DNA of 63,183 nt, filler included, from Hausera hauseri (lineage: Eukaryota): the NCBI GenBank assembly GCA_046269625.1. It is 11 parts of 11 records of this genome, joined end to end, with 100 filler letters (N's around TTAATTAATTAA, not from the genome) between each part and the next. Parts side by side here need not be neighbours in the genome. Positions count along the whole stretch, not along the records: positions 53,336 to 59,026 come from JBJURY010205856.1; 10 more parts are not named here. One strand, written 5' to 3'. The position numbers and the translations under genes are program-made. A model generated the notes under the pieces. That model did no database searches and was not told where the DNA came from. It saw nothing but the letters and a program-made list of their open reading frames with translations. Positions 1 to 59,026 of the stretch are shown piece after piece (position 1 is the stretch's first letter; each line of letters opens with the position of its first letter).

Positions 1-1470
1 ATACTACCTCGCTCGTTTTTCGTATTCATCTGGATACTTACCAATCTAAAAAATAAATAGTAAGGGTTAATCCTATGGCGAAATGTGGTTTTGAAACAAA
101 ACCAGTTCTTTGTTTGATGATAGAATAACCCGATCTGTAATTGTCAGGTTATTGTATCATAGACGTACCCTTGGGGTTTCAATACCCTTAATTCTCGTTC
201 TATGATTTTAGGACGTTTATTGTGACAATTTTTGGTGACTAATCAAAAAGTCGCAAAACATATTATAAGCACGAATGTTGACAGGCTTGCGATTATTATA
301 ATGGGCAAAGTAGTAGTTGTATCATGTCTCATGTCTTTGCTTGCATGTGTCGCTACTTGTATTTCCTTAAAGGTTTGTACTGTGAAGGTTTGACTCCGTA
401 GGTCTTTTGCATGTATATTTATTATGTATTCTGTCTTTGGTACTAATGAGTTGCATTCGGTGTGTTATGTGTCTTTCAGTAAGGTTGTTTTTATGCTTTT
501 ATACATCGTACGACAATTTATTTCGATGTCATAGTTGAGATTTTCTTCCACCGAAAATAATGTTTTACGTTGCTGTATCCAGCATTTCACAGGAATTCTA
601 AGTAACTTCCTTTTGTTCATCTTCTTTGTGGTAGTAAGCCTAACAGTGGTGCTTACTGGAACGGTCCGTCCCGTCTTCGTCGTTTCGACCGCAAATTTCC
701 AGATTTTACTGTTCGGATGATATCTTCCTAAATAAGTGCTAGACTTATTCATTCGAATTCCGTGTAGGTCAAAATGAATCCTATGTTCATAGCCTTCTGA
801 GATTTTACAACAGATCTTAAGATCTCTGTTCTTGATGCCACGATAATTGGGAATTGGGCTTAACTCCTTTATTTTGGTAAACTGGATTGAGATCTCTTGG
901 TTACTTGGCAATCTCCTTTTTGTATCTATTTGGATATATGTGTTTTTCTTATCTTCTGAAATACCAACTATGTTTTCATTCAACACCCATTTAATTGGAT
1001 CGGTTGAATGTACTATGTTGCTGAGTTCTGTTGCATTGACCCGTTCTCTGGCGGGCATTACTAATTTTACTTGCTGCCTTATCGCTCCTTGTGTGCGTTC
1101 GTATTGTGAAGATATAAGTATTCCCATAATTTATGACACAACATCCTTCTGGAGTTCCGTAAGGAAGATCGCAATGGCTCATCACTTGTTTATTCGCGTT
1201 CCATAGAACTACTTGGTATTTCACTGATTTTCTAACGGTTCCGTCCATCTTAAGTAGCACATAGTCTCGTATTGATCTAGACTTTGGAATGTGAAGCGAT
1301 CTGAGGTGCTCAAGTCGTTTCTTTTTATTCGTATCCATTCATCTTTCATCTATTCGTTTAGTTGTTCAATCAATCCTCCTTGATCCTTGGTTTTTGGCGT
1401 ATATGAAGCTATCAGTGATAGTGCTAAGACTATCTGTATGTATGATGTAGGTCAGGTAAATATAGACGAG
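1..1470 (-). pseudogene. Post-integrase type I membrane protein module (signal peptide, Cys-containing ectodomain, FN3-like domain, TM)
   Basis: Signal-like SYIQIVLALSLIASYTP near 1400-1450, ORFs 991-1338 and 465-1127, ECNSLVPKTEYIINI near 415-460, TM LPIIIIASLSTFVLIICFATF near 245-310. Homologous to 18855-20130 and 57420-58700. Confidence 0.65.
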
Positions 1471-18854: not shown

Positions 18855-20130
18855 ATGACAACGTTGTTCATTTAGTCAATTTTTCCGTTTTAACGGTAGT
18901 CATAATCTCATCCTTCGTTTTCTCGTTGGTTAATGGCTTTGTCAATACAATATCATTTAACGTTCGTACCGTAAACGTTCTACTTTGTTTGTTCTTGGCG
19001 TTCATCTGTATTATGTAGTCTGTTTTGGGTTTTAAACCAATACATTTGAATCGATGACTGCCTTTAACCAATATTAATTTCTGATTATCGCATAATGTTC
19101 AGCAGCTTATTTCTAGGTCGTAGTTAAGTGTTTCCTCCACAATGAAGGTTATTTCGCACTGTTGTGCCTAATATTTTAATGGAATTGTTTCTAGCTCCTT
19201 TTGAGGTACTCCCTTTGTTTTTATGAATTTGGTGAAAGTTGAAATAGTTTTATTCATTTTCGCAGTCGTAATTTTGTTGGTTGTTGTTTCAAATGGAATT
19301 CCTAACATCTGATTTTCCAATTGATAAATTCCTAAGAAAATACTTGACTGGCTTGGTCGCACTTCATATAAGTCTAATCGAATTCTATATTTGTGTCCCT
19401 GAGTAACTTGCAACAGTTATTCGGTCATTCAGTGTCGATTTGACAGTATTGCTGGTTATAAACTGCTTTGTCTTCTTTCAGGAATTGAACCGTTATTACT
19501 CGTCCTTTAATCAACCGTCCCTTTGTATTTATTTGGATAAAATTATCTTTTAGATTTTCCATTATACTCGCTACGTTTTCTTCTAACATCCGTTTCAATG
19601 GATCGATAGAATGGAGCATATCTTCTAACTCTATACTGAGGTAATCTCCATACGTTTGTGGTATAACTAAGTGTGAATTCAGATTTAATTCAGAGCGTAC
19701 TTCATTACATTTCGGTAAATATGCACGATAGATGAGTGCGTAGGAATTTCAATATTTTACACTGCAACAAACTGTATCGTCTTCTGGTTCGAATTCGCAA
19801 TCAGACTCGGCTCGGCTTAATAGGTCATGAAATAGTATTTGAATTTGCCCTTCATATAGTCCTGGTAACCTAAATCCAACAAATGGGATTTCTGGCGAAA
19901 AATAATCTAATTTTATTGCTCGTAAAAATTTCTCGTCCTTTTTTTCAGTTTTATGTTGGGGAGTTCCCTCCTTTTGTGACGGTGGTTTCAATCCGGCTTT
20001 CCTGATTCCATATATATCGCTCAACGAATTTTCATCTACCCACCATTGGGCGTTAGACTTAGGCGTTAAGGTGGCAATCAACGATAAAGCTACTATTATT
20101 TGTGCATAAGATACTGGTCTAGCAATAATC
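18855..20130 (-). pseudogene. Post-integrase secreted or membrane module with FN3-like domain
   Basis: ORF 19749-20306 runs from the integrase tail in frame into PVSYAQIIVALSLIATLTPKSNA. FKCIGLKPKTDYIIQM (L-x-P-x-T-x-Y) near 19000-19050. Confidence 0.65.
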
Positions 20131-29720: not shown

Positions 29721-29827
29721 TTTATGTGGAACTTGTTATATAAAAAACATCTTTGGTTTGTTTAAAAAATATAAACACTTTTTGGTGGAATTTTGTAAAC
29801 TTCATGTCAATTTAAATTTTCACAATT

Positions 29828-33890: not shown

Positions 33891-33892
33891 GT

Positions 33893-33910
33893 TGGTGTCA
33901 GAAGTGGGAT
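33893..33910 (+). promoter_or_regulatory. Primer binding site complementary to tRNA-Leu 3' end
   Basis: TGGTGTCAGAAGTGGGAT, the familiar Leu PBS of many Gypsy elements, 2 nt after ...CCACA. Confidence 0.8.
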
Positions 33911-33924
33911 AGTTTATTGCAAAA

Positions 33925-35436
33925 TTGCATGGTTACATTATGAAAGAGGATAGTAATATTGCACAATTGAAGTATGAGATTAGCGAAAATGGTAAATTCC
34001 AATGTAAATATCCCATTTGCAAGGACATTGGGCGAATTATTTCCAGTGGTAACGTTTGTCGTCAAATGTTTGATTCCGAAGTTCAACTCATTTGTTCGTT
34101 GAAAAAGATACGAGACAAAAGTACCCGTAAAAGTCCAACAGTCGAACCGGTTTATTTATCAAGATGGTACATTAGTCCATTGGGCAAACAAAAAAATCAG
34201 CATTTATCCGAAAACGAAATTAATGCCAAAGAAGTATTGTTACTGTCGGAAAACATATTTCCAATAAATTTCAATCAAAAATCATACCGAGAATTGTGCA
34301 GGAACGAATATGGAAATACAATCGTTCAATGGAGGAATTGATGCAAATTATATTTCTAATTAACAAGGTCGGAGAGAATTTTATCCAGAAATTTAGTCGC
34401 ACATTTTTTGCAGTTCATGGTATCAAAAATCAAAATGAGACAAAATTTGTTAGTTATGGATTCATCAGTGGATTTTTCCTTGTTGACCAAAATGGATTTT
34501 CAAAATAGTCATACAAAATTGGCATAATATTTCGTATCTCAGAAGTCACACGTACGTAGCTATATTTCTGCCTTACCGCTTGAAGAAGCTGCTAGAGTGA
34601 AAAAGATTACGAACCAGTTACAGACTTCATCAGAAGATCTGTTGCGGGCTGGTTGCTTCTCTCCTACAGACTTCAACAGAGTTATTATGCAAATAATTTT
34701 GAAGGTCAATGAATTTGCACTACAAAATAGAGAACCCTGTTCGGATTTGAAAGCGAACTTTTTAATGTTAGCAATAAGTGATTTTCAAAAAATCAAATAT
34801 TCACCACCAATCAATCTATCTAATGGCAACATTTTATGACTTCGAAAGGTCGAAAAAACAAAAAATAAAATATTGGAGGAAAGAGCATTGAATGATATGA
34901 TTGAGATCTTGTTTACGAATCTTGGTTCATCAATGACTACGTTATCGGACGAGTTGATGATGATACTAAATGATATCCAAAATAACATGAATTGGGATTC
35001 GCTGGATGAAGCAGTACTTCAAGGGTTGTTCCAACGTTTAGATACCTCAAAAGAGTCCTTTAACGACATCATTGATGATCTTAAGAAAACTTTAGATGAC
35101 AAGTTTGAAATTACCACTAAAAATATATATCCCGAAATTGATATTTCTCAGGCGGCCTTGACGTCAATTGGCTTTTTTGATGTGGAGAATGAATGTAATA
35201 GCGTTCTTCAAAATTATTACATACCACCTTTTGGATTACTGCAAAAATCATTAGAAATTCAATTGGACGAACTGGAGAGACTATCAGAAACATACAATAG
35301 CGATATGTCTGCGAGGATATTTAAAGTCAAAGAATTTATTAGAAAACTTCATTCATTCAGGAAAGAATTTACTTTCAAACTCGAGAAAACAGGAGCTAAT
35401 ATTTACGAGAAACTCAAGGCCGGGAGAGATGCGTAA
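33925..35436 (+). pseudogene. Broken ORF(s) of unknown function directly downstream of the PBS
   Basis: ORFs 33925-34341, 34597-34839 and 34873-35436 (acidic, helical). No Gag motif recognised. Confidence 0.35.
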
Positions 35437-35499
35437 AAATCAAACTGTAACCGTAGAGAATGATTTGAGTTTACTCATACATATTCTCTATGACAGCAA

Positions 35500-37004
35500 A
35501 TGTCACTTTCACTGGAGATGTCGGAATATATGTCATTTCCCCAGCTGCCGTATCAGATAAATTCCGTGCCTCCTGACTCGATGCAATTGATCACAAATTA
35601 CACACAACAAACACAATCGGGACCAGATCACGATCGGCAATTCGATCATCATCAAAACCAGTCGTTAAACAATCGCCGTAACAATCATCTCGTTCTGATC
35701 AAAATCAGTATCCTGAGGTTTGGCTGAATTTCATCGATGGATTTCCCAAAGTGCCGCAAATCGGGACCGTTCCACGAATGTTGTGTCCGTGTCCATTTAA
35801 CGAACGACCGACAGATATTATCATTGATCATGTGCAACATGTTCTGTTTTTGGATCGACTGCAGCTGTGTGTCGTTGTCAACAACTGCCACTATGCTGTT
35901 CGATTCTGTTGTAACTCTATCCGAATGAAAATTAATCCAGTTCTTCACAAGTGCGCAACAAACGCGGTTAATCCAACGACCCTAAACAATCAACAGGTTA
36001 CACTCTGTATCGGTGGTCCGTTTCATGAGGTGATTATTGATGGATTTCCATTTCACGTACCGACGACTGGTGAGACTGTCGAGCACGAATTTAATGGAAA
36101 TATTGTCAGTTTTCGATTCAAAGTATCAAAACCGTTTCCTCGTCGAATTATGAATCCAATTCCCGTCCATATCATAAAATGGGCTGAATAAGGATATTTT
36201 AGCAAACCACAGAATCTAAAATTGTCACCGTTTAATCCTCTGAACAATTTGATGTTGCATGATCCAGAAGCGCATTTTCTCCGACAATTAAATCCACAAG
36301 GTGATAAAGGAATACTGTCCCAAATGGCTTATCCGATCCTTCAGTCCATGCGCAACGTCAATTCTAATCATCGATTCATACTCAACCGATCACATCTGAA
36401 TTTAAATCAACTGAAACCCACCGCAATCGTCTCGATGGTTGTTGACGTTAAACCACTGATGAGTTGCGAACCAATTTCAAACAAAAGTCGGACGATTCCT
36501 ACAATGCCAGTCGATACGTTCGAAGAAGCCACGTTGAATCTGAGCTTTGAGGAATTCGATTTGGCTGAATTCCAAAAGTCGAATGATATCCATCGGGAGA
36601 ATATGAAAATTGTCGACAAATCCGTGTTCGTCTGCGACAAATGCAGTTTGAAAATCCCCGATGGGAGTTTCTGTACAGTCGTGAAGAAACTCGATAATGA
36701 TCATAAAAGAATGAATCATGAGCTAATTCGGCTACTCTTGAATAGGCATATGGAGAAAGGCGGCTACTTCACTGTCAGTGTTCTCGATTTTTGGAGCAGC
36801 GAGAATCAGTCAACGAACTCAAAATTCGCCACGATTCTTCACAATATCCTCTCAAAGACTCTCGGTAACCATTTATTTCACAAAATAAAGAACAAACAGT
36901 CGAAAGGTGTCGACGAGACCGGCGTCGATTTGATCAACAAAGACGATCCAGTGGGGAAAACACCTCATGTGGCGAAATTTGACGATCAGGATTCAGACGT
37001 TTAA
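35500..37004 (+). pseudogene. Broken host-like gene, possibly Pcf11-like C-terminal region
   Basis: VTLCIGGPFHEVIIDGFPF recalls the invertebrate Pcf11 beta-repeat, followed by a CDKC...H zinc-finger-like segment. Weak, from memory. Confidence 0.3.
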
Positions 37005-37139
37005 GCACAGGTTGGTAAAAATCTTATTGCTAGTTTGCGCAAGCCAGTGTGGCCATATTTTGCGCTCACAAATCTTTCATAGGTAACGCCAATTTTCATT
37101 TTAAAGGGTTTTTCAGCTCGATGTTTTTGGATACCCCCT

Positions 37140-39230
37140 TGTCTTAATAATCACTTACCACTGCTACCTCAAATGCACGCCCGTACTCCGTGTCAACACA
37201 GAAGGAAACCGCCCAAGCTCCCCATGCATTTCACCACTCCCTTGAGATCATTTCGCTGCAACTCTCCTTCATAGTCTTCAGCAATAATCAACACATTAAA
37301 ATCATTAGGGCTCCACTCGACGCCACGGCGCACCTCCTATACATCTCTTTATTCTCCGCACTCAACACTTTCAACTTCCATTTCACACACCGAGGCATCA
37401 CTGTACATCCTATCGACTCTCCTATATTTTTTCTGCCACGAACGTTCAGTTATCCATCTCATGCTCCATTTTCGCCTCCGGGGTGGATCGAACCCAAATC
37501 CATCCTTCTCGGATGATAAATCCACGAATACAGGCAACGTCTATCGTTTGCCACACTCAACAGTCACGAGAATCAGTAAATTTACATTGTGTGGAATTTT
37601 TCCTAGACAAAAACAACTCCAGCAAACCATGGCTCCAATTCCACCAACAGTGGCTAAAATCGAACAACATCACTGATTCTTTTGTGCGAGCCAATAGCCT
37701 CTTAATTCTTCTGCTGCCAACGTCAATCAGAAGATTAATAATATATCCGAGCTGCTACAATCCTCGACACCCTACGAGACACTCTGTGAAGCTGTGCTGC
37801 ATGTCACGAATCCTTCCACTGACAATATAATACAAAAGTATTTTAACTATCACACGATAGAAAGCCAAAAGCCATTTGACTTTCTCCAAACTGCCATTCT
37901 GCACCTTAGAGCTCTAGGAGTGACACCTACGAATAACGCGGATCTAATTCGCCGTTATTTCTTGTCATCGTTGCCCACATCAAACAGAGCCTTACTGACC
38001 GTTGTCTACGAATCCACTGCTATAAAAAAACTGGCGATAATGACTGACAAATTCCTTTGAATTCTTTATACCAACAGTTCTCTCCCTATTGCGACTGCAA
38101 CCACATGTGCGCCAACTACAGACACAACATTTTTACTCAACAACTGCAAATGATGCTGCAACAGTTTGACAAGTTACAGCAGTCGATTTCGGCCATTACT
38201 ACCCAACTAAATAATCTTCATGGGCCTCGACGAAGTGAAACCAGACCGTCAAGGGAGAGAAGCATTTCCAGACACTGCTGGAAGGGATGCTAGGAAATGC
38301 TTTTGGGGTTGCCGGTTTTACAACAAACGGTACGCTGTGGACAACCCTATTTGTGTCTACCACAATAAGTTCCAGTCGCAGGATAGATCATGCGTGCCTG
38401 GTTGCAAACATTACAACAATAAATCTCCTCGCTTTACTTCCTCTTCTTTCTTTTCTTTAAAACCTTCAAAAAGCTAATAATGCCGCCAGATTTTACGGCA
38501 CATTCTGGCGCAGACAATATCGCTCAATCTTCTGGCCGTTTCAACACCGCCTCTGCAGTCTTTCTGTTGAAAGCTGTACTGTTATGTAGAGATACTTCAC
38601 ATGTCGACTTCTTTATAGACTCAGGAGCTGCCTTTTCGCTCCTTCCCTTGTCCTTCGTTCCTACATTGACTATGATTTCCTGTTCACCGCTTTTCACTGT
38701 CAGTGGTCAACTGTTGGACTTTGCAGGAACCACGGAATTGATTTTCACATTCGCCAACTTGCCAGATAAGTTTGTCTGGAAGTTCCACGTGGCCAATATT
38801 AAATCTCCCATAATAGGCTCAGATTTCCTTGTCTCACATGATCTATTGGTCGATTGCAAATACGGCTGTCTTTTAAGAAGGAACTCTATTGCAACTTCAA
38901 ACATGTGTCTCGTAGACAACTTAGCGAGCAATTCATTACACTCATCTGTGAATATGTTGAACGTTTCGTCATCTATAAAAAACTTCAGATAAAGTCGGTA
39001 ATATTTCAGTTATGAACGACAATCATAAATTTATTCTAAAACAAAAATCCAAATTAGGCGTCGACAGTAGCGATGCCAGTTGCTTTTCGTCAATCACTGT
39101 AGCTGTTTTCTCTAATGATATGCCTCATTCATTCTTGTCTCTAGACTCCAATCTTAAATCATACGTCACAACGTCTTGCTTTTGCATAGTTAAAAGGGAC
39201 GTCAACTTCAAGCCTCCATTCACAACTTAT
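37140..39230 (+). mobile_element. CsRN1-like Gypsy element: UBL-Gag plus protease (copy C2)
   Basis: LHFRLRGG at 37464-37487, QKPFDFL..LIRRYFLSSLP, ICVYHNKFQSQDRSCVPGC, protease FFIDSGAAFSLLP...PIIGSDFL. Confidence 0.85.
38468..38510 (+). promoter_or_regulatory. gag/pol -1 frameshift site and pseudoknot (slippery site mutated)
   Basis: AAAAAGC-TAA then TGCCG-CCAGA...CGGCA...TCTGG. The protease ORF is in the -1 frame. Confidence 0.6.
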
Positions 39231-39848: not shown

Positions 39849-40511
39849 TTAAACGGGTGGTTCCAGCAGTTTGACATTAGAATTGCCCTTTTTGTAGCCA
39901 AACAACCACGACCAATATGAACTTTCATCATTGTCGCCACCACCATCATTGAGTAGAATCGTTTTGTCGTTGTCGTCGTCTTCCATGGCAGTAATGTCTG
40001 AATGGGCATGGGAATGATATTTATAGTTTATTGTTCTTGTGCAATGTACATTATTTTGATTCACTAAAACAGTTGTGCTTTTTAATTGATTAACAATCGG
40101 TTCACAGTACACTGTCCGAATACCGAGTACAACAATTTGTCCACTGCTAAACACATTGACATAGAGTGGGAGAAGCGATGTCAGTCTCAGTGCAGGAAAC
40201 AGTTCTGGTTCATACGTACATTCAGCAGTGGCCATTTCTAATTTGTACAGATTGATTGTTTGGCGGAAGTCTAACTGAGTCGTTACCGTTATTGATTGGA
40301 TTTTGTCAATGACAATTCCGAATGGTAGTAGTTTATCAGCTGTGATTGGTTTTCAACAACCCATAATACGACACTTTCCCGATTGAAATATGATGAATGT
40401 AAAATCCGGTGGACACTTGAAGACATACTGTATCGGCTTCCATTGATTAAAAGGTAGTGTGTTAATGTCACACTCGGTAACATGTCCGCGATAGTTAATA
40501 TTAGCTAACAT
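39849..40511 (-). pseudogene. TATA-binding-protein-like gene with one in-frame TGA
   Basis: Hand translation from ATG 40511: ..FIIFQSGKCRIMGC*..KIQSITVTTQLDFRQTINLYKL..YEPELFPALRL..VNVFSSGQIVVLG. Both TBP repeats are present (IFSSGK..TG; YEPELFPGL..IFVSGKVVLTG). Confidence 0.8.
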
Positions 40512-40604: not shown

Positions 40605-41062
40605 ATGAAGCTGCATAATGATGCTATTTTCCAGATTGTATGCCCAAGTAGAAGTGGGAAACTCACTTTGTGTGTAAATTATTGCAGAACTACCGTGACA
40701 TGTTCCATTCAGCGCAGTACAATCACATTTATTGGCATCAAAGTGTTGGTGACGATGGTGAATCCGGTTTGACACATGAGGAATTTTGTCAATTAAAATC
40801 CATAAAGGTAATTGATGGGTTTGATGAGAACTGGTCTGAGAGATTACGCATCGGTGACGTTATTGTCATTGACGATTTATTTCAAGAAGCCACGAAACAA
40901 TCGGGCTTCAACAACCTGTTCACGAAGATTGCACGACACCGTGGTGTGACGATTATTTTCATTACGCAAAACATGTTCCATCAGGGTGGACAGCATCGAA
41001 CAAGAAATCTAAACCTACACTTATTGACTTCAAACAACAGTGTTCAGATGACATGCGTTTAA
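40605..41062 (+). pseudogene. Polinton packaging ATPase (A32/FtsK-HerA type)
   Basis: Worn Walker A IVCPSRSGK[T]HF with a 1-nt deletion near 40660, Walker B VIVIDDL, then LFTKIARHRGVTIIFITQN. Confidence 0.88.
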
Positions 41063-42823: not shown

Positions 42824-43891
42824 TGAGCACTTACTTGGTATTTGATACTGACACGTTCTCATCACTAAATGACAACAATACAGATGAACGGTTTACCATG
42901 GACTTGGACCGACCGCTCGAATAACGCACGGGAACCTGGGAAGCAGCTCTGTCGGAATTCACACTTATATTTGCACCCAAATCAATAGGCGCGAAAAGCG
43001 CTATTTACTTTACCCGACTAGAAAAATACCCTATTCGAAGCCGTTTACAATTAATCCGAGGCTCTAACAAATATATTCTTCGCAATTATTTGGAATACAA
43101 TTTCTCGGTTTATGCTTATTTTTCAAACTACCGTATAAAACTAACACATCAAAATTCAATGGAATTGCAGTTTAAATCCATTAATGATGCTCAGGCATGG
43201 GGTTTTCGATCAGTCAAAGTACGTTCAAAAGGTATACGGCTAGGTGGACNNNNNNNNNNTTGGTGAAAAATTAGGTCTTTCCTCTAATGTGACAACCGCA
43301 ATTGTACTGAACTGCATTAGGTCAGAATCAGTCTTTCGCTTGTATATTGTACCATATGACTTATTTATGGAAACGGAACTGGAATTGTGGAAATGCGTCA
43401 AGAAAACGGCTACATTAGCTCAAGGACATGTCAAATAAATGCAGATTGCCATATTTCGCTTACACTACATGACAATGTTACATATTTTGCTTTTGATGAA
43501 TTATTGGCTTGGAATCTGGGTTTTTCGAAACGCGAATTCTATCAAACCATTGTTGGAGAATCAATTGTTGCCAAATACAAACCGAAACTCCATGGAGCAT
43601 TTCATAGAATCAACATTTTAATGGATTTAACCGAATTTGTACTCCTTGATGGAGAACGTAAACAATTACTGGCTTTTATCGAACTGGATTCTGACACGTA
43701 CAAAACATCGGGTGAAAATGTTTGCGTTAATATGATCAGACCCATATACTTATCATTGTCTCACAATATTGTGCACAGTATTTCCGTATATATGTTTGAT
43801 GAATTTTGGAAACCCAATANNNNNNNNNNCCCAATAAATTTCTGTTTGGGTCAACGACACATTTGACGTTACATTTTTGAAGTCGTCCATA
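42820..43891 (+). pseudogene. Polinton penton (minor capsid)-like protein 1
   Basis: N-term YLVFDTD..FTMDLDRPLE*RTGTWEAALSEF; C-term PIYLSL..ISVYMFDEF..PINF..THLTLHF. Confidence 0.7.
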
Positions 43892-46928: not shown

Positions 46929-48269
46929 TTATGACATCATAGATGTTCTGTCGCAATCTTCGTATATTGGAGCCGTTGGTGGCATGATGGGCAAAGGTGC
47001 CTTGATTACTGAATACATTTTATGTCTATTTTGTCTGAGGATTGCTTCTCCTCCCTTAGGCTCGTCATCATCGGAGTCATTTCTTCGTGCTGTTGATTTC
47101 TTAACTTTACGTTTCGATCGAAATGTGGGTCTTGCTCGCCGTTTATATTTATGATAGCCGATATGGCGTTCAACGTCATTTTTCCATCGGTTTTCTTCGT
47201 ATGCTTTAAGCATTTTGCCGAACTGTGTGATAATTGCGGTTAAGATCTTGCAGGAAAATCCTGTTAGCGTGAATATTTTGTACCCATTTATAACCGCTTG
47301 GATTACCGCTTTTATTAGTTGTACCAAGTAATAGATTGCTAAAAATCCAGATGCGGCTTGTTCAAAGATTAAAAATCTTCCCCATATTTTGTAGAGTATT
47401 TCTGTGGTTACCCGTTGGTAATGGTTCGCACCCAGCAGGGATTCCCATTTAGCCTGGTAGCGAGTATCGTCCACTACGAATGCCATGGTTTGATTTAATT
47501 CGTGTGTTTGCTGTCGTGGAAAAGCTAGGAATTGTCGAAAAGCTTCGATTTCTTTAGGCCTGTAAATACCTTTTTGAGATATATCCTGAAACTTGTCATC
47601 AGTAATTCCTTTTGCTAAATGAGTTCCAATTAGTATTTTAGGAATGATAGTAACGCCTCCATTTGGTAAGCTAACCCAATCTGTTTCGCTACGCCTAAAC
47701 ATTGGTTTACCCAAACTTGCTTTACAGTCCTTTAGTATTATAGGTTGTATTGCGTTGTCTAGCAACACTCTAGTGAGGGGCATGGCTAAGCGCGGAGTGT
47801 TCTGATAGATTACAGGAAGCTCTTGGATACACCGTTTTTCTTCGACATTAATTGGTACGTCTCTTCTCGCACTCGTAGGTTAGTAGGACCTCGCCAGTAA
47901 CTCGGCCGAAGATTCCTTCTCTTATAGGAATTATTGATGAGGCTAACTCCGGGTTCTCAGAAATAAGAGCTAATTTTGTTCTCATAATTTCCGTATCTAA
48001 TTTGCAGTCATTAGTTATCATTTTGTGATATAGTTTGGCTATTCCGACTTGTCCTTTATAATAGAAATAATCGTCTCGGTTTTTCAGATAATCTTCAATT
48101 TGAATGTCTTGCGTTTCTAAGTTGTATGTTTTCGCGCTTATCTCCGTTTCTGCGACGAAGAACGCTTCGTATTTAGTGGTGAACATCACTACTTCGCAAC
48201 GTGAAATCATTTCCTTTTTTATGCATTTCAATCCATGCTGATCAGAGATTAATATCGTATGTGTATGAT
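46929..48269 (-). pseudogene. Chuvirus-like glycoprotein, C-terminal half with PTAP tail
   Basis: ORFs 47848-48231 and 46929-47783; WGRFLIFEQAASGFLAIY; PPTAPIYE. Confidence 0.82.
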
Positions 48270-48369: not shown

Positions 48370-50702
48370 ACCGATTTTTAACGAACTGTATCCGTTTGAT
48401 GAAATGAGAAAGAACTGCCATTTGTACTGGAGTAGCACTGTCATACACCATGAGAAAATCTCCGTCAGATCTTATCGGTTGAAGATAAATAGTTCGATTG
48501 ATGATCATCATCTTTATGCCATTTGCGAGGCTGATCCGATCATTAAATTGGCTTATCTCGATAAACGGATTAAAGAAGCATACCAAGGGCTACAATCGTG
48601 CTGTCCGGTCGAATTGGACGCATCGATTTATCATAATTACTCTAGCGATGAGGCCGACAGTCCTTCGGTTGCGCTGAAAACCATATTAGAGAGTCATCTA
48701 AAGATTATCAATTACCAACGAACATATGCACTGCCGGTTGGCCAAGGAATGCTTGGTTTGCAGATTACGAATCCCCAGTTTCTAAAGGATGTAATTGTTG
48801 TACGACAATTATGTTTGTGTTGGAAATATTATTTATCTGGAAGCTATAAGGCCCATATCATTGAAATTACGGTGACAAACCGGGAAAAGGATACGGGTAA
48901 ATAGCCGAGTTTTCACAATGGGGTTGCAGCCGGTCTTATCATATTGTCATATAACTATAATATCGGTCCATCTTGGATTTTGAAACAATGTAATTTGAAA
49001 CAACAGAATGATAAGATAGAACTTACGGCTGAACAGGTTGGAATTATGTTTGGTCTCGGTCTTAACGGGCATTTGAATAAACTCGATAGGACAACTATTG
49101 GCAGAGCATTAAAGTCATTGGATGACATGATTACAATGGCATTTTTAATTGGACTTTGTGTTTAACATGGGATCAAAGAATTCTCTTCTGATGTCATACA
49201 TATCTCTTCATTATGGTCGTATGTTGCCAGACGACAGAGATAACAGTAATCAAATCTCATCAAAAGTCGCCTCTATCATTTCCACCGGGTTAGTAAATTT
49301 CACATTGGGGCACCAACAAATGGCACGATCTTTAATTGATGCAATCAGACGATCTAGAGAACAACTGTTGACAGAGGAAATTAGTTGTTCGGATATCGAA
49401 CCCACTGCAACAACGGCAGAATTCAGCGCTGGATTGATTTTGTTTCAACATGGCGACATGTATGGAAAGCACCATAATCCCGATGAATTGATTCGTTTGT
49501 TGCAGTACCTGAAAAGGGGTTATCAATTTAATATTGCGGAAAATGATATGGACAGTATTCAGGATTCACAGAAGAATATCTCGAAGAATTATGACCCGAA
49601 AAAGCCACAAATAATATCGCATTCGTTGAATTTCATTAGTTTTCAAACTACGACTTCCACAGTTCAAGAAGATGAATGTTACAATGCAGATATCATGAGT
49701 GCGGGTGCTGCTATGGCACTAGGAATGATATTCATGGCTTCGAATAACGAAGCAATAGCCAGTGAATTAAAGTGTCCAAATACGTTTTATCTTCTGAAAG
49801 ATATCCGTTCTCCAGTTTTGTTTTTCCGTTAAACAGCCTATGGTATGATATGTGGAACGGTATTCGACCGACACAACAATGGATAGATAGTATGATCCCG
49901 CAATTTATTTCCCGTAAGGCTCTGCAAGCACAACCGGCGGATATTGTTAAAAAGTATATTGTGACGGCCAATGCGAGTTATCTTCAGTTGCTCGTGGGGT
50001 CATGTTTTGTAATGGCCATGCGAAATGCTGGTATGGATGGTCTCGCTACTAATCTTTGCACATTGAGAAGTTATTCATCAAAAACGATTGTGAATTATTG
50101 GAGAACACTGGCCAATACTTTTATGATTGGGTTTTATCCACTCTCTTTTTATCGACGTGCATGATTGCATCCGAATGGTAATTTAAAGCTGTTGTGTATG
50201 TCTCGAAACCTCAGATCAATAAATCGAGCTAAAGATATGTCCATTTGGCTTTTATTCATGGGCGGCGGAAATCTTACTCTATGCAATCCTCAAAAATCCT
50301 TTGCACATCTTATTATAGCTTTTCCCAAGATTCCCTCTAACCTATTCTAGAAATAGATACAATTTGCAGGCACTGAGACATCTATATGTTATTGCAACGC
50401 GACCACGAATATTTTGTGCTGTTGATATTGACTATCAGAATGATATTCACATCAGCTCCAGAATAAAGTTCAAAAACGATATTAAAGAGTCTCATGACTG
50501 TGTTGTATTCCATCGTGAACACCCATCATTAATTGATGAGATTCAAGTATTTGATTCCAAAGTTGAATATTTTCCACAGATCTACAAACCAAGTACGGAA
50601 TCCTGGAATGTTTTAAGCCAGTCACTGTGCAGTGGTGGATACTCTTGTTATAAAGAAATTGTCTGTTATTCCATTAAAAGACACAAAGTTATCGCTTACT
50701 AA
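48370..50702 (+). pseudogene. ANAPC1: Anaphase-promoting complex subunit 1 (PC-repeat and C-terminal part), intronless with stops and frameshifts
   Basis: QRTYALPVGQGM, *PSFHNGVAAGL, FGLGLNGHL, GAAMALGMIF..NN..IA..L..PNTFYLL, NRYNLQALRHLYVIATRPR. Confidence 0.85.
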
Positions 50703-50722
50703 GAATCCACCCGATAAAATAC

Positions 50723-53235
50723 GTGGAGATACCACGCTACCAGTCTTTTTGTTTATCACCGCCATTATCCATCTACCTTTTTGTAAATAAGAAATTAATA
50801 CATACTGCACACGTAACACAATGTATCGACACAATATATTTATATGACCTCATTTATAAATCCACCACCTTCAGTGACTTCTATTTGACTCATAATGGAT
50901 TCATTGCAACTGACCTCCCACACATCATGTCCTCACAATACTACCTCTGTATATATATTTACCCTAGAATCTGCGGTGGTATGATTTCTTCACCAACCAG
51001 TGAAATCACAGATAAGGTGACAACAAAACACAAATCCATTGTCTACTATTCAAAATCAAACCATCTAACTCCTCCAACCGATACCAGCTTTTCTCATAAA
51101 ACCCCTCCACTTACACCCTCTCATTGCTCTGCATACATTACAGACAATGAAAACTCTAGTAATATTTGGCTACACTTCCATAAACTTTGGCTACAATCCA
51201 ACGACATTACCGACTCGATAACCAAAGCCCATAATCTACTCTACCTTCTACCAAACTCCATGAAGACCTCAATCCATAATTTACTGGACATATTTCAACA
51301 CCCTGATCCTTATACGCAATTGTTCAATGCTGTACTAAAACTAACAGAACCACCAATTGACTCGATAGTACAACGATTCTTTAATGAAAACGCAATTGGG
51401 ACACAAAAACCTAGTGATTTCTTATGCACCTCATTGGCTCACTTACGTACCTTGGGTGTCACCAAGGAATACAATCCGGATCTAATCCGCCGATATTTCC
51501 TTAATGCTTTACCCATTCAAATGATGGCTTTACTTACTGTTGTTAAGGATTCTACATCTTTAGATAAACTAGCTGAATTGGCCGATAAGGCACACAAAGT
51601 TTTTCAATTACAATCACAACCCATCGTATAAGCCGCAATTATGACCTACGATAGTCAACGACATACAGCTATCGAACACCAATTGAATCAATTACGCGCC
51701 GAAAATGCGGCACTACAACTTACAATCAATAACATCAATGATAAGCTGAATGACCTTTCATCACATCGACGGAATGCTTCATTCCCCCATCGAACGCGTT
51801 CTGTCTCAAGAAATCGAACACCGTCACCAACGCGGTCATTTATATGTTATTATCATAAATAATTTAATAAAAAAGCAAATAAATGCTGTTTAGGGTATAG
51901 ATATTATTCCTCGCATCTTCACTGAGATAACATTATTTGCATCTATCATGCAAAATTTGGATCTAAAGCTAGAAATTGTATTTCAGGCTGTAACTATAAA
52001 ATTAACCATAACTACACGACTGATAGACGTTCCAGTTTCTCTAACAATAACCGTCCTAACTCATCAATCCAAAAAAACTGATTTCGCCGCTAGATTTCAC
52101 GGCAGAATCTGGCAAAGGCAACTTACCAAATTTTTCTTGCCGACACATTTCTTTTGCAGTCTTTACTCTAAAAGCTGCTATCTCCACTCCTAATATTCAA
52201 CCCATAGACTTTCTCATAGACACCGGTGCAGCTATCTCATTACTACCACTTTCTTTTCCAGTTCACATTCTTCACTTAAAACAAAACTGTTATGCACCGC
52301 CTCCGGTCAACCCCTTCATACTATCGGAACTTGAAAATTATCTTTCACTCTCCCAAAATTTTCCTCACCATTTCATTGGACGTTTACAGTCGTTAACGTT
52401 CAGACGGCTATACTTGGCTCCATTTCCTGTTACACTATAACTTGCTAGTTGAATGTAACCAACGATGCCTGAATTCAAATACACCTAAAAAATATAGTAC
52501 AGGAATAGACAGCACCCCGACGACAGCACAGCCAACGGTAAGTAGGCAATCAATCTTAAAACAGTCAATATCTCATCTAATCCACTTAACTATGACGTTT
52601 TACCTCGTAAGCATTCAAAGGACAATGTCGATAGTCAGTCACAGCTCAATGTTGGACCTCACTATCTTGTATCTTCAGTAAAACCACTAAACAATAGTAC
52701 ATACCATAATAAGGTCTTGGACACGACCATACTACATCAAATTCCACTCGATTTCCCACCAACAATCAACCAACATTCGCCAAGTACTGCTAGCAACATC
52801 GGGTTCATCGTCACTTCCTATATTCCAGCAAATACCCATAAATTTACAACAATTCATCAATATTTCTTATCCTCGTATACTTTAGAAAAATCGGAATTAC
52901 ACCCCTTTAAACGGCATTTACCACCATATTATTACACGACACCAAAGGCCAATTCGACAAAAGGTCCGTCCATTGTCACCGCATCGCAGGCAGGCAGCAG
53001 TGGCGGAATTTTTTGAACTTGAACAATCACGTATTGTCCGTAGATCTAAATCCCCATGGTCTTTGCCACTCCACGTTGTCAAAAAAAGGATGGATCTTTC
53101 CGACCATGCGGCGATTACGGCCAGCTTAATACTTTAACCATAATGGATGCATATCCACTACCATTAATCAAAGACATATTATATCGGATTAATATTACTT
53201 CAATTTATTTAACAATTGATTTAGCCAAAGTTTAC
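50723..53235 (+). mobile_element. CsRN1-like Gypsy element: UBL-Gag, protease, start of RT (copy C3)
   Basis: DFYLTHNG..YIYPRICGG, QKPSDFL..LIRRYFLNALP..LDKLAELADK, double CHCC, FLIDTGAAISLLP, KKDGSFRPCGDYGQLN..DAYPLP..IDLAKVY. Confidence 0.9.
52072..52113 (+). promoter_or_regulatory. -1 programmed ribosomal frameshift signal (A AAA AAC plus H-type pseudoknot)
   Basis: Canonical heptamer ends gag at TGA 52079. GCCG/CGGC and CTAGATT/AATCTGG stems follow. The -1 frame is open through protease DTG. Confidence 0.75.
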
Positions 53236-53520
53236 NNNNNNNNNNNNNNNNNNNNNNNNNNNNNNNNNNNNNNNNNNNNTTAATTAATTAANNNNNNNNN
53301 NNNNNNNNNNNNNNNNNNNNNNNNNNNNNNNNNNNACCACTTCTGCAGTGATATTAACGCTTTTAATCAGTCTTATAATAGGAACAGTGCTATTCTTCAA
53401 CAAGAGGATTAATCAATATAAACGATTTAATTCCACCGGACGAGTTATACTGCCAACAACTAGCGGATACATGATTGGAAGTAGCCTAATACTCATGGCT
53501 AAAGCTAGAACTAGAGATAT

Positions 53521-54537
53521 ATGCCTATAGTCAAGCCATGGAAGTGGTTACTAATGTTACTAATAACGTTCGTTTTAGCATTAACTAGTTATATTGCTAT
53601 ATTGATCAGGAGATCGTATAAAATACGAAAAGAAATGAAAAGGAGGGAACAATTAACTTTGGACGTAGAAACAGCAAAAGAGGAACCACCTCCAAAGTAT
53701 GATGATGTCTCTAATAAAATACCATATGTTTACAAACGACTAGCAATACCTATAGCTTTGTCAACACTCAATGTAACCTCAACAGAAGCCAGTCAACTTG
53801 ACTATGCACTTATTCCGGCCTTACCGGTCGTAGATTATAAATCATTTTTGCTATTAATGTTTCTAATAGGTTTAGCCAGTAGCACGATAGTTGCATTAAT
53901 AGTAGTAGCGTTTTATAGATTTTGCCGAGTAATAAAACATTATAAAAGGACAATTAAACAACTACCACCTCCTGATTATAAAGAAAATGAAGGAAATTAT
54001 GTTAGATCCAATCCAATACTTTTGTCAACCTTAGTAACATGCTGTTTAATAAGTGGTTGCGCTGCCCAACCTATCAATACAAATGAACTAGACTATTCGA
54101 AGTATGTGAAATTTCTATCATACATATCGGCAATCTATGTAATCGAACAGCTAGCTGAACTAAGTCAATTTGCAAGATGGCAGTGGGAAAAGAAGAGACA
54201 GGCTAATAGAGAAAGATTCTTAGGCGAAATTTCAGACATACTAGCCCCGAAAATAGTTCTAAATTATATGATATCTGAGACAGAAATAACCGAAAACCCA
54301 TGGTCAAAGGATCCTTATATACAACGCTTATTAGAAGAATCATCAAATAATCCTACAAAAGAGATAACAAAAAGCCATACATGGCCAACGGCAGAATTGG
54401 AAGATATACCCTGGATGAATAATGAAGAAATTCAAAGGGAACTTAATAGAATAGCGATAGAACGATACAATATATCGGAGGATAACATATTTAAATCAAT
54501 TAGATACTATCCTAATAGAATTCGGAAAAATATATGA
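53521..54537 (+). CDS. Multi-membrane polyprotein segment with repeated TM, basic tail, PPxY and signal-like units
   Basis: TMs WLLMLLITFVLALTSYIAILI and FLLLMFLIGLASSTIVALIVVAF; PPPKY, PPPDY; signal-like PILLSTLVTCCLISGCAA/QP. Confidence 0.55.
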   Translation: MPIVKPWKWLLMLLITFVLALTSYIAILIRRSYKIRKEMKRREQLTLDVETAKEEPPPKYDDVSNKIPYVYKRLAIPIALSTLNVTSTEASQLDYALIPALPVVDYKSFLLLMFLIGLASSTIVALIVVAFYRFCRVIKHYKRTIKQLPPPDYKENEGNYVRSNPILLSTLVTCCLISGCAAQPINTNELDYSKYVKFLSYISAIYVIEQLAELSQFARWQWEKKRQANRERFLGEISDILAPKIVLNYMISETEITENPWSKDPYIQRLLEESSNNPTKEITKSHTWPTAELEDIPWMNNEEIQRELNRIAIERYNISEDNIFKSIRYYPNRIRKNI

Positions 54538-54865
54538 AGAAGTATCGGCAAAAGATAAATTCTTATTGTTAAAATCATGTGATACAATAAGGAATAATGA
54601 AATAACCAAAGGAAATACTTGGGATAATTCATCCTATAGAAATATAACGGCAATAATAAAAAGATATAAAGCCTATAAGAAAAATGAAATATAGCGATTA
54701 ATCGAAGTACATGAAGCAACACATTTATTACAAATGCTTAACAAATTACAAAAATCGGACCCGAATATAGAAGGTGAAATAGTCAAATTAAAATAACAAT
54801 ATCCAAAGCAAAATCTACATGAAATAGTACATTCTCTCCGCCAGCAATATACAAATGATCAGAAA

Positions 54866-55252
54866 ATGGAAAATAATGAAAGTGAACCAATTGGAGAATT
54901 GTTAATAGAATCAGATATTGAATTAACTTATAAGCAAACCTGGTTACGTATATTTCTATGGGAAATTAATAGGTCCCCAGATAAACAACAATCTCCCCAG
55001 TATCACTATTTAAAATTAAATGTTTATAACCCCGAAAAACAATATCTTATGCAAGACGACGCCTATGCTCTTAAAACTATAGCATTAGAAGCTCAACAGT
55101 ATTTGAAAACAAACCCTCTCAATTTACACGCAGGTGTTTTTACATCTTTCACTACATGGGATACATCTCTATATCAATTACTTAATATAGCTCTACATAA
55201 ATCTAAGAGATCGGAAGCTTCAACCTCAATAAAGAAACTCTCAATGATTTAA
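54866..55252 (+). CDS. Unknown, frameshifted piece of the same polyprotein
   Basis: TWLRIFLWEI..YL..YNP..LHKS resembles EWQRIFIHWI..YL..YNP..LHKS in the next ORF. Confidence 0.4.
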   Translation: MENNESEPIGELLIESDIELTYKQTWLRIFLWEINRSPDKQQSPQYHYLKLNVYNPEKQYLMQDDAYALKTIALEAQQYLKTNPLNLHAGVFTSFTTWDTSLYQLLNIALHKSKRSEASTSIKKLSMI

Positions 55253-55350
55253 TAAAGGACTGTGGTAATGACCATGTAATTGATGGATTATGGACACATA
55301 AAATTAAAAATATCGAGAATGATACTGAAGAATATAAGAAACTCATATGG

Positions 55351-57084
55351 ATGGATTGGCTATTATGGGAAGCAGGATTAGATGATAAACCCCTTACAAT
55401 GCAAATAAGCGAAATAGTTATTAACGTTATGGAAAGAACAGACTATTATAAAACATTGGTAAAATCAAAACTACAAATACTAGAAGAACTTCGACATGAG
55501 GTAGAAATATTGTATGATGATTACTTAAGGGATAAACGAACATTAGGAATAGTGCATCTTGATAGAGAATGGATGAGGGCGAAAGCTAGATGTATACATG
55601 AAACAAGAATGCTTATAGGCATTAGTACTCCACATATGCAGATAGGAAAAGAAATTTTCGAAAGAGGACAATTCCCCGAGGATAGTTACAGGTTACGAAT
55701 ACGGAAGTACTATGATAAGAGAATTATTACTATAGCCGGTCGACGCGGTTATAGTTGCAAGGATTATAGAAATAAAATTTGGACAACTCGTTTATTGCAT
55801 CGAATACAAATATATAAGCCAACTGGTAAACAATATATACAAATGCAATTATGTTTAAAGGCTTTTAATAACACTAAATTAAAATTTCAGGGTTATTCAA
55901 AATGCTCACGGTATAATCATATGATTCAAACAATAATTAGTGACTTCCGCAAAGGTTTTAATCAACCCCCTAAGGAAATGAGCCAAGACAACCCATTAAT
56001 ATTAAAACGAGCCCCGGGAATACATGATCCAATATATGATCCTGATTATCGAGTATACTACAATAATGCCAAAAATTTAGAAAGGGACCAAACCATAAAG
56101 AAGGAATGGCAGAGGATATTTATCCATTGGATAGAAGAAGAAAATTTACAAATTACGAAAGAAAAACAGGCCGTGCTAAACTATCTGTTCGACATGGAAA
56201 AGTATCGATCGTACAACCCTATATTGTGTGGTGACTTTGAGTATTACGATATGATGAGAAGATGCGCTGATAATTACATGAATATTTTGTTCTTGAGGGG
56301 AATAATTGATCAAGAAAATTTTTACGTACACAAAACAATTTGTTGTGCGAATAAACTTCAAAACACACAAGAATGGTCAGACCGAATAACTCACCGAGAA
56401 ATCATTTGGACTAAACTTTTGCATAAAAGTTTAGAATCTATATCGAAACCAACTATAAAGATAGATAGGTGGGTGTATCAAGTCGTGTGGGAATTAGGTA
56501 TGAGTCATCAAGATATATCAAACGACATTGTCAAATGGATTTGTAGTCAATATACAGAATCATTTTACAATTCCAATGAGTATCATCAGCAAGTCCTATT
56601 ACAACAGATAGTGGATCATTTCCATATTAATAATTTTGTTCTATCATCGGATTTCAACACGAAAGAAGTTCGACAGTATATGATACAAATCCTTCTACAT
56701 AATTTCAACAAGAACCGGGATCAGCCCAAAGGGATAAGAGTAACAGACGAAGAAATAATTAACCTAACAAAAGCTAGTACCTTTGAGATTTATTATCGAT
56801 CAATACAATTACACGATGAGAGAATAGACTCGCTTGCTCAGAAATACGGGATAGATAGTAAAATAGTTAATGACACCAGATGGATTAATAGAGTGATGGC
56901 CTATTTAGGACTAACACAAGTGGATTTACTACCCAAAGAAGAAGCATATTTAATAAAATATTTAGCTAAATTACCGCAAAAAACATCATTGTCGACCAAA
57001 CTGCCCTACCAGTGGTACCTAATAGAAATGTCGATGCATACAATTAATATAAAACAATATCTAAGAAAGAAAAAGAAATTTTGA
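55351..57084 (+). CDS. 577-aa protein or domain of unknown function
   Basis: Long uninterrupted ORF, in frame with 57118 across a single TGA. Confidence 0.6.
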   Translation: MDWLLWEAGLDDKPLTMQISEIVINVMERTDYYKTLVKSKLQILEELRHEVEILYDDYLRDKRTLGIVHLDREWMRAKARCIHETRMLIGISTPHMQIGKEIFERGQFPEDSYRLRIRKYYDKRIITIAGRRGYSCKDYRNKIWTTRLLHRIQIYKPTGKQYIQMQLCLKAFNNTKLKFQGYSKCSRYNHMIQTIISDFRKGFNQPPKEMSQDNPLILKRAPGIHDPIYDPDYRVYYNNAKNLERDQTIKKEWQRIFIHWIEEENLQITKEKQAVLNYLFDMEKYRSYNPILCGDFEYYDMMRRCADNYMNILFLRGIIDQENFYVHKTICCANKLQNTQEWSDRITHREIIWTKLLHKSLESISKPTIKIDRWVYQVVWELGMSHQDISNDIVKWICSQYTESFYNSNEYHQQVLLQQIVDHFHINNFVLSSDFNTKEVRQYMIQILLHNFNKNRDQPKGIRVTDEEIINLTKASTFEIYYRSIQLHDERIDSLAQKYGIDSKIVNDTRWINRVMAYLGLTQVDLLPKEEAYLIKYLAKLPQKTSLSTKLPYQWYLIEMSMHTINIKQYLRKKKKF

Positions 57085-57117
57085 GGACCTACCAGAGATA
57101 AAAAAGTTTGGAATAGA

Positions 57118-59026
57118 ATGGAAAAGAATATCGATAAATTGCTCGAACTCCTCCCAAAACCTACCATAGAGAATAAATCTAGTCTAAAACCAGTGCTGGA
57201 AGAAGAAGAAAACTCTACCATCGACGTAAATCCCAATGAATTGAATAATTCAAACCTTGCGGTAAATGTTCAGTCTGTTGAAAATAGTCAGAATACGAAT
57301 TCTACAATAGGTACAGAACCCATTGCAAGTGAAAACATTCTTGAATCGAATAACCAACAAGATGTCGAAAGCAAATCAATAAGTCAACAACGTCAGAGCA
57401 TACAACCGCTGCTTGGAAGAATGACTTTATTCTCATGTATATTAGCATTATGCATGACTAATGTTTTGGCACGGACAACTGCTACGTTTCATTTAAATCA
57501 AACTCTAATCTCAAATTCGGACCAAGGACAAGAGTTACATACTGTATATCGAGACTATTCGAAATTATTAGAAAATGCACGACTGGATTTGAATGATAAT
57601 CGCCGATTTATTTTCAAGGTTTTTTCAATTTACTATAATCCCAAGAAAAAATGTTTAATGATAACTTATGTAAGTGGATTGAATGGACAAGAAAGGGAAG
57701 CAATAACAATGTTCGAAGAAAATAGACCTATCTGTGTTGTGCATTCGGAACTAAAGGATAATAAATGTTGCTTGGTTACTCAAGGATACACTTATTCTCT
57801 TACTTTTCAATTATATCAAATCACTATGGGAACAAATGGATTTGGTCACAATATCACCTTTCAGCGAACTATTTTCGTTACGATACCTACGGAAATAACA
57901 ACTATTAAACCAATTAGAACAGGAATAAAAGCGGACAAACCTATTAAAGAAAATAATGATAAATGTCGCTTAACACCCGAATATGATCGACCAATAAATG
58001 CAGATGTAGATAATTCTAACGGAATTATGAGAATTACCCCTAGAACAGAAAATGTCACCTATATTATAACATGTACAGCGAAGTTAACAAATGATGAGGA
58101 TTATAATATAGAATATTCCGGTATGGAACCCTCAGGAGTTTGTGTACCAGGTAATGACAGACAAATACTGTTGACCTTACAATTACTATCCCCATGTCCC
58201 AATATATTTTGGGTTAGTACAACTTATTTTAATATACTCAACTCACCATTACATGCATCCTACGACGGTTTACAACTTCCTGAATACATTCAAATGATTC
58301 GATTTACTCCTTTGAACATTTCCTATCAAGTAAACGATAAAAATGCCATATTTAACTTCCCTAATAACAATTACATAATATCATTTGACGATGATACGGT
58401 TAAATTCTCACTATATAAGGATACATCTATTAGTTGTGACAATCTCAAACCCCAATGTCTTTACATTGTACAGATAATACACCAACGACAGACTATAGCA
58501 CTATGCCATATAACTACTTCCGGTAAGCGACCCGATGTCCTTATAGAACGGCAAACAGTATCAGACGAAAATAAGATAACAGCGAAGAATCAAACATTCA
58601 TTAAGACAACAAATCAAGACGATGGACATCTGTTACTGATAATTATTGTACCCATCATCATTCTTATTTTCATATTGATATGGGTAGTATGGTTATACGT
58701 TAAAAGCCACCGACAAACTAAAAGACCTGCCCAAACTCAATTATCACGGATTAAACCCGATTCAAGACCCCACAGAATGTTATTACCAATGGGCATATTG
58801 GTCTGTTGCATACCAGATTCATTTACACAGCCAATGGTAAGCTCAATGAAAACAACAAATGTACTTACTCAAGTATCATCTAATACATTTTCGGATTTCA
58901 TGAAATATTTAAAGAGAATCCCGAAAATAGAACCATGGGACAAGCAAGGTATCACTCCAGGAGATATGTACATTCAATATAATTACACAAGACACTGCTT
59001 ATCCCTGAGATTCCTCAATCCACAAA
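57118..59026 (+). CDS. Membrane glycoprotein-like polyprotein segment (signal, Cys ectodomain, FN3-like domain, TM, next signal), 3' truncated
   Basis: MTLFSCILALCMTNVLA/, several NxS/T sites, SCDNLKPQCLYIVQI, TM LLLIIIVPIIILIFILIWVVWLYV, then LLPMGILVCCIPDSFT/QP. Confidence 0.65.

Follow-up and report, generated by a model that had tools for sequence, protein, structure and literature searches.

What kind of sequence encodes a string of tiny membrane segments with basic, PPxY-bearing tails, and what would the products do? The question is raised by one of the 11 contigs that make up the window, the whole 63,183-nt stretch of Hausera hauseri DNA analyzed here (linker between contigs, N44-TTAATTAATTAA-N44). 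This contig covers positions 53336-59026 (5,691 bp), and the PPxY-unit region begins at its first base; other contigs of the window hold animal genes (7tm_3 and TBP matches in Pfam). An earlier note on this DNA had described the region as a series of small proteins, each a transmembrane segment (TM) with a polybasic tail, separated by signal-like segments at which signal peptidase would release them. The contig carries the following features.

53336..59026, plus strand: whole contig, read as one decayed, polyprotein-like path of ∼1,895 codons that is open on either side (frame tracing)
53342..53398, plus strand: TM0 and basic tail, without PPxY, its N-terminal side lost at the contig end (hydropathy)
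53468..53506, plus strand: signal-like segment 0, with Ala at −3 and −1 (hydropathy and (−3,−1) rule)
53515..53790, plus strand: unit 1, with a short N-terminal stretch, TM1 (53545-53607), basic tail, PPPKY, and weak signal-like segment 1 (53740-53790)
53686..53700, plus strand: PPPKY, the PY motif of unit 1 (motif scan)
53791..54066, plus strand: unit 2, with an 18-aa ectodomain, TM2 (53845-53916), basic tail, PPPDY, and signal-like segment 2 (54013-54066)
53965..53979, plus strand: PPPDY, the PY motif of unit 2 (motif scan)
54112..54174, plus strand: weak fourth hydrophobic segment of 10 residues, then a basic patch (hydropathy)
54461..55249, plus strand: middle stretch, broken and predicted to be helical, bearing two HExxH motifs (motif scan and model)
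55207..57081, plus strand: ORF C, 625 aa, without a hydrophobic segment and followed by the stop at 57082 (ORF calling and hydropathy)
57421..58701, plus strand: ORF D surface protein, with a signal (57421-57471), a beta-rich ectodomain, and a TM (58630-58701)
58702..59025, plus strand: ORF D tail, basic and without PPxY, with a signal-like segment (58777-58827) and then a stretch leaving the contig

The contig is a decayed polyprotein-like ORF rather than a spliced gene. Only 3 of the 1,895 codons on the reading path are stops (at 54692, 54794, and 57082), compared with 369 of 3,785 off the path; three frame changes (within 53512-53527, 54461-54534, and 55207-55252) bring the number of breaks to six. 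No polypyrimidine-AG site or intron was found across the 5.7 kb. In the single copy at hand, either decay or genuine ORF boundaries may explain the 57082 stop and the 53521-53528 overlap. The path exits both contig ends, the contig ends within coding sequence, and its longest internal direct repeat is 26 nt. Neither gag, pol (PR-RT-RH-IN), nor an LTR lies on the 5.7-kb contig. The truncated contig likewise gave no gB match, no Rfam family matched, and comparison within the window revealed no DNA similarity to the neighboring contigs. The sense strand is A-rich, with an A content of 0.395 vs. 0.38-0.39 in the neighboring Gypsy elements.

PPxY binds the WW domains of Nedd4-family ligases. Both motifs that had been reported, PPPKY and PPPDY, are indeed at 53686-53700 and 53965-53979, inside a single stop-free frame of 340 aa (53515-54534). 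PPxY by itself is not rare (12 in six frames vs. ∼6 expected). When the ORF was shuffled 200,000 times, two PPxY copies arose in 481 shuffles and two PPPxY motifs in just 9. In the six frames of the whole window, PPxY follows a TM only in units 1 and 2, and two such units appeared in none of 20,000 shuffles. TM1 and TM2 are 21-24 aa long, and the 15 aa that follow TM0, TM1, and TM2 contain 5, 8, and 6 K/R and 0, 2, and 0 D/E, respectively. Unit 2, the paralogue of unit 1, has 92 aa, ∼10.3 kDa, and a pI of 9.0; its ectodomain bears a proline-containing hydrophobic patch just ahead of TM2, and a Tyr sits at the TM2 boundary.

At least three units with a TM and basic tail had been proposed. TM0, TM1, and TM2 all bear out this pattern, but TM0 lies in a different frame (the change falls within 53512-53527), begins two residues from the contig end that cuts it, and has no PPxY, so it may anchor a larger upstream protein. 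Unit 1 could be a separate ORF, since it has an ATG of its own at 53521. The weak segment at 54112-54174 is a possible stop-transfer sequence. Beyond the region first noted, the pattern extends to a fifth unit of TM, tail, and signal at 58630-58827, following the ORF D ectodomain. PPxY is present in two of the five units, 1 and 2.

Alignment of units 1 and 2 (score 75, z 11.8) was equaled by none of 2,000 shuffles, by 1 of 5,000 shuffles that preserved segment composition, and, for the tails alone, by none of 5,000. With 25 of 71 aligned residues identical, the two are, on this comparison, tandem paralogues of ∼92 aa each. The PPPxY and the signal core align in register, which is the best evidence, from one pair, that motif and signal mattered. 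No second copy of the units was found in the window or in databases, and conservation is therefore judged from this one paralogue pair, in which the PPxY and the signal-like end were both kept through the duplication. Units 0, 3, and the D-tail unit have no PPxY and no detectable homology to units 1 and 2 (z at most 2.4), nor has TM0 to a neighbor’s TM and tail (z 0.8). Compared by codon position, units 1 and 2 give 0.48/0.63/0.37, a pattern that fits purifying selection, but it comes from a protein-guided, hence biased, alignment with no control, and we did not count it.

Signal-like segments were called from hydropathy and the (−3,−1) rule. A hydrophobic segment with a small-residue end had been described behind each PPPxY unit; the ends are as described (Thr at −3 and Ala at −1 for segment 1, which ends at 53790; Cys at −3 and Ala at −1 for segment 2, which ends at 54066), but signal 1 is weak, with a hydrophobic core of just 10 residues and a mean KD of 2.09, below the 11-residue threshold of the hydropathy scan. 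The uncharged hydrophobic segments run in the order TM0, signal 0, TM1, signal 1, TM2, signal 2, and the weak 10-residue segment; ∼1,080 aa without any then lead to the ORF D signal, a 387-aa ectodomain, the TM, and the last signal-like segment. Long and short segments thus alternate, and none occurs in the 1,467 aa of intervening soluble blocks; in a linker of this length, such a segment arose by chance in 6-11% of trials. By the positive-inside rule, the basic flank of a TM faces the cytosol. All strong TMs carry this flank on the C-terminal side; therefore, the tails would be cytosolic, and the segment between successive TMs must cross back. Should translocation continue through the segment at 54112-54174, ORF C would end up in the lumen, and a start of its own would be required for ORF D.

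Cutting behind the signals would yield units of ∼92-95 aa with cytosolic loops of 32-45 aa and, for units 1 and 2, ectodomains of 14-18 aa. The earlier proposal that tiny single-pass proteins are released is in part consistent with this predicted topology, into which the internal signals fit. However, each predicted product contains a TM plus a C-terminal signal stub, as in alphavirus 6K, so that becoming single-pass would take a further step. The same arrangement recurs at the far end of the contig, where the signal-like segment at 58777-58827 opens another luminal stretch that runs to the contig end at 59025; the polyprotein would thus continue past the contig.

Between the units and ORF D, the two HExxH motifs of the middle stretch (54710-54724 and 54818-54832, plus strand) are 36 residues apart, with 0.056 expected in 1,119 aa. 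A zincin fold was examined for this stretch, and the model had pLDDT <50 over most of the region and gave generic helical-bundle matches only. Database searches returned no relative of the unit-bearing ORF B, either by a word search of 2,853 candidates of length 187-595 or in the ESM Atlas; none of ORF C by phmmer over 1.84 billion proteins, in the Atlas, or among PDB sequences; none of the ORF D ectodomain by word search (lengths 355-1133) or among PDB sequences; and no match to the middle stretch among PDB sequences. On the contig’s ORFs, Pfam and NCBIfam yielded nothing but sub-threshold matches. The single-sequence AlphaFold models were poor (pLDDT 33.7 and 45.8), and fold searches with them found nothing significant.

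A link to a known family came from within the window. Five other contigs are mutually related (65-78% DNA identity) and represent decayed Gypsy-type elements in which a gB-type env precedes protease, RT, RNase H, and integrase (gag-env-pol); the Monjiviricetes-type (gB-like) fusion glycoprotein PF24664 was found in the three neighbor ORFs tested. In two neighbors, integrase is followed by a signal and an ectodomain and, in one of the pair, by a TM as well. The neighbors’ internal signals are in frame with the upstream domains. The neighbor features that concern us here, all on other contigs, are as follows.

180..1445 (approximate), minus strand: relative of ORF D, with signal, ectodomain, and TM, after the integrase of a gag-env-pol Gypsy element
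18855..20111 (start approximate), minus strand: second copy of the post-integrase surface protein, its signal in frame with the integrase C terminus
5410-5421 (PSAP), 24061-24072 and 46968-46979 (PTAP), minus strand: P(T/S)AP of the gB-type env, in its cytosolic tail (motif scan)

We scanned 92 neighbor profiles against all three target frames together with reversed and shuffled decoys. The post-integrase protein was the best of the 92, matching ORF D with an E of 6e-5 (best decoy, 3e-3), and with a two-sequence post-integrase profile, ORF D ranked highest among 1,004 sequences (E 4e-6, against 9e-4 for the best decoy). Pairwise alignment gave z values of 9.9 and 5.1, and a Cys-Cys motif is common to ORF D and both neighbor proteins. 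The high score depends on reading through one break that was placed after the alignment had been seen; when the read-through is left out, z is 1.3 and 3.7 for the two pieces, and 3.6 for the other copy. These comparisons suggest that ORF D is a remote homologue of the neighbors’ post-integrase glycoprotein. The A, B, and C stretches of the contig have no match in the neighboring elements, and nothing there resembles the final 66 aa of ORF D. The position differs as well: the D-like protein directly follows integrase in the neighbors, and it follows ORF C on the contig.

A gene shared with Gypsy elements of the same genome would support, not define, membership in this lineage, and remote homology of ORF D provides one. 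With the intronless path, the A-rich strand, and the ORF D match, we read the contig as a piece of a Gypsy-type element, probably of the neighboring lineage. A mobile-element polyprotein had been set against a spliced host gene beforehand, and the stop counts and the ORF D relationship both favor the former.

Several observations were made on the neighboring contigs themselves. The ectodomain of the neighbors’ second surface protein is beta-rich, contains Cys, and has weak matches of FN3 type (fn3, E 0.16; Pur_ac_phosph_N, E 0.053). None of 57 database polyproteins covered this protein; the 57, found with a query made of a neighbor’s integrase and post-integrase regions, extend over no more than 54% of that query and show no match to B, C, or D. 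For ORF D, an FN3 fold was suggested by eye and is not claimed, as its weak support comes from the neighbors’ ectodomains alone. The three P(T/S)AP motifs are the only ones in the window’s six frames and occupy one env-tail site in all three copies that cover it; they are one inherited feature, not three independent ones. Between the gag-like and env regions, the neighbors have ∼1,100 aa that look largely helical (9794-13150, plus strand, with related stretches within 1-9691 and 14511-18754), without a Pfam match above cut-off in the pieces tested; the target contig’s soluble stretch of 1,118 aa is close to this in length and has no detectable similarity to it. A second Gypsy family, apparently without env, occupies 25316-31067, 31168-39230, and 48370-53235 (63% identity between two contigs; integrase match at 31686-32327) and is inserted beside host gene pieces, for example of a class C GPCR and a PC_rep protein. 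The contig at 39331-44071 has a TBP-domain piece (39852-40352, minus strand) beside ORFs at 40652-41059 and 43360-43863, which have no Pfam match and look, by eye, like pieces of a Polinton packaging ATPase and minor capsid protein.

Our best explanation, still a tentative one when Gypsy ownership, signal peptidase cleavage, and Nedd4 recruitment are taken jointly, is as follows. The contig would be part of a large, decayed Ty3/Gypsy-type element of the kind that has env in its polyprotein (Burro-like, gag-env-pol). Stop-transfer helices alternating with internal signals would lead the product of its long ORF back and forth across the ER membrane, with a cut by host signal peptidase behind each internal signal. 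The proteins set free, of ∼10 kDa, would each have a luminal N terminus of 14-18 aa, a TM, a basic cytosolic loop with PPPxY, and a leftover signal stub. Their ectodomains are too short to bind much, so the units would most likely act through TM and tail: the PY motif would engage WW domains of Nedd4-family HECT ligases, and through the units a membrane partner would become subject to ubiquitination and ESCRT sorting. As cargo adaptors, the most likely role, they could remove host surface proteins or route the element’s own glycoproteins. A late-domain role in budding is a close second; we favor adaptors somewhat.

The contig might have another owner. It could be an integrated piece of an enveloped virus other than a retroelement, with a signalase-processed polyprotein, the Gypsy neighbors having captured its D-like glycoprotein. 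The 5.7 kb contain no retroelement gene, A, B, and C are unrelated to the neighbors, and breaks are fewer, with longest open frames of 647 and 625 aa vs. at most 316 in the neighbors; the layout is also akin to that of RNA-virus structural polyproteins as outlined in part of PMC5580485. We nonetheless consider this origin, the main competitor of Gypsy ownership, unlikely, because no viral protein was matched by Pfam, by phmmer over 1.84 billion proteins, in the PDB, or in BFVD, the base composition tracks that of the Gypsy neighbors, and the sole link found is to a Gypsy protein. That same link, the lack of any database relative in the searches above, and 5.7 kb of polyprotein layout with six breaks and no intron make it highly improbable that the contig is a host gene, or a pseudogene of one, coding for PY-bearing membrane adaptors, even in an animal and even with TM-plus-PPxY tails as common as they are among host Nedd4 adaptors. 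PMEPA1, PRRG, and Commissureless are such host proteins.

The units themselves can also be understood differently. EBV LMP2A is a multi-pass membrane protein with several PY motifs, and an uncleaved protein of this LMP2A/Ndfip type, made of repeated TM hairpins with PY motifs on its cytosolic loops, is favored by the weakness of signal 1 and by the ease with which a loose (−3,−1) match arises (36% of trials by chance). Yet the second segments, at 10-17 aa, would make poor 19-residue TMs, with an apparent insertion cost of +3.9 to +10.7 compared with −2.8 to −6.6 for the TMs (Hessa scale). Moreover, four of the five signal-like segments end in Ala at −1 (6% expected by chance), a residue that makes up 2.8% of the soluble sequence, signals 1 and 2 not being independent. 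An uncleaved protein is thus quite unlikely. FAST-like fusogens and viroporins, both offered by the earlier note, are weaker readings. In the former, the units would be FAST/sORF2-like cell–cell fusogens that move capsids between cells, with PPxY setting turnover only. A size of ∼92 aa, a TM predicted to lie N-out/C-in with a basic patch beside it, a Tyr at the boundary of TM2, and the hydrophobic patch in the unit 2 ectodomain are all among the features described in the portion of PMC11952523 that deals with such proteins, in which ectodomains have ∼30 residues rather than 14-18. The units are embedded in a polyprotein rather than encoded by separate small ORFs, no N-terminal Gly occurs at the ATG at 53521 or at the predicted cut ends, and the neighboring family already has a gB-type fusogen. 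N termini made in the ER lumen cannot be myristoylated, and those of the units would be luminal. With neither a myristoylation motif nor a free-standing small ORF, we regard the fusogen proposal as very unlikely. Even less probable are 6K/p7-type viroporins, oligomeric channels that would aid release: as predicted, the units share with these (PMC5580485, in part) a small, hydrophobic, signalase-bounded form in which a basic loop in the cytosol joins two hydrophobic segments, but here, the loops have 32-45 aa and a conserved PY motif, and few polar residues are available in TM1 and TM2 to line a pore.

Returning to signalase-released Nedd4 adaptors in a Gypsy-type element, a bolder form of the idea is possible but doubtful: the contig could hold a multi-kilobase accessory cassette within the polyprotein of a retrovirus-like invertebrate element, with the tandem adaptors, a large HExxH protein, and a second surface glycoprotein besides the gB-type fusogen. 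If true, it would place herpesvirus-style remodeling of the host surface, encoded flavivirus-style, in an LTR element, with an adaptor array expandable by tandem duplication. For the budding of env-bearing invertebrate LTR elements and their handling of host defenses, late-domain-type motifs on membrane proteins, PPxY on the duplicated units and P(T/S)AP on the neighbors’ env tail, offer a direct test case of ESCRT and Nedd4 use. Signalase-bounded units would let a polyprotein gain accessory genes by tandem duplication, with no new promoters or splice sites, and would escape small-ORF screens that filter for Met and myristoylation, the sORF2 survey being one.

Compared with known systems, the units are built from familiar parts in an unusual arrangement that we did not find described; no tandem signalase-bounded PY array appeared in the literature searched, which takes in little of the subscription journals and Repbase. 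Elements of gag-env-pol order with a gB-type env occur in nematodes, bryozoans, and flatworms according to a portion of PMC13524379. In planarians, Burro has env and ubiquitin-related domains within a polyprotein of ∼5,000 aa (PMC6431247). The contig resembles Burro and other gag-env-pol Ty3/Gypsy elements in its very long single reading path holding membrane proteins (PMC6431247 and excerpts of PMC13524379), and it differs from them in having no gag, pol, or LTR. The neighbors share gag-env-pol order and the gB-type env with Burro-like elements, to which Burro adds its ubiquitin-related accessory domains; a post-integrase surface protein and tandem small PY units are not mentioned for Burro-like elements in PMC6431247 or the available text of PMC13524379.

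A close functional parallel would be the small PY membrane adaptors of herpesviruses, which relocalize Itch and remove surface proteins, as parts of PMC5849660 recount. Like UL56, ORF0, UL42, and U24, the units combine a small membrane protein with PPxY, its cytosolic side in the units being deduced from charge bias. The herpesvirus proteins, as presented in sections of PMC5849660, have an N-terminal PY, a C-terminal anchor, no obvious signal peptide, and genes of their own; in contrast, the units have the TM before the PY, flanking signal-like segments, and a place inside a polyprotein. In processing, the counterpart would be alphavirus 6K, which is small, hydrophobic, and signalase-bounded, as predicted for the units, its C-terminal segment serving as the signal of the next protein. 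A partial view of PMC5580485 describes signalase release of 6K, leaves open whether it is a hairpin or single-pass after cleavage, and has the second E2 helix leaving the membrane after the signalase cut. HCV p7, as far as the available text goes, bears the same likeness to the units. Alphavirus 6K is a single unit for which the consulted portion of PMC5580485 reports no PY motif, whereas the units here are tandem paralogues with longer, PY-bearing loops.

Two further systems bear on the motif and the setting. Bluetongue virus NS3 is a membrane protein. PPxY and PT/SAP are late domains, and NS3 carries both (PMC7995964, in part); like NS3, the contig and its neighbors have late-domain motifs off Gag or matrix, but NS3 has its own gene, in a dsRNA virus, and bears PSAP and PPxY together, as the same part of PMC7995964 states. 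The MDG1-group sORF2 and reovirus FAST proteins, of 63-200 aa and mostly with an N-terminal Gly myristoylation motif, resemble the units in having, in the examples that a portion of PMC11952523 covers, ∼90 aa, one strong TM, an orientation that is N-out (for the units, as predicted from charge bias), and a polybasic juxtamembrane patch, which the contig displays as 5-8 K/R in the 15 aa after TM0-TM2; sORF2 proteins also reside in LTR retroelements, and rotifer elements carry small TM ORF3s (PMC5408684, in part). Unlike sORF2 and FAST, the units have no myristoylation motif, a shorter ectodomain, a polyprotein context, a PY motif, env-bearing neighbors, and a predicted second hydrophobic stub.
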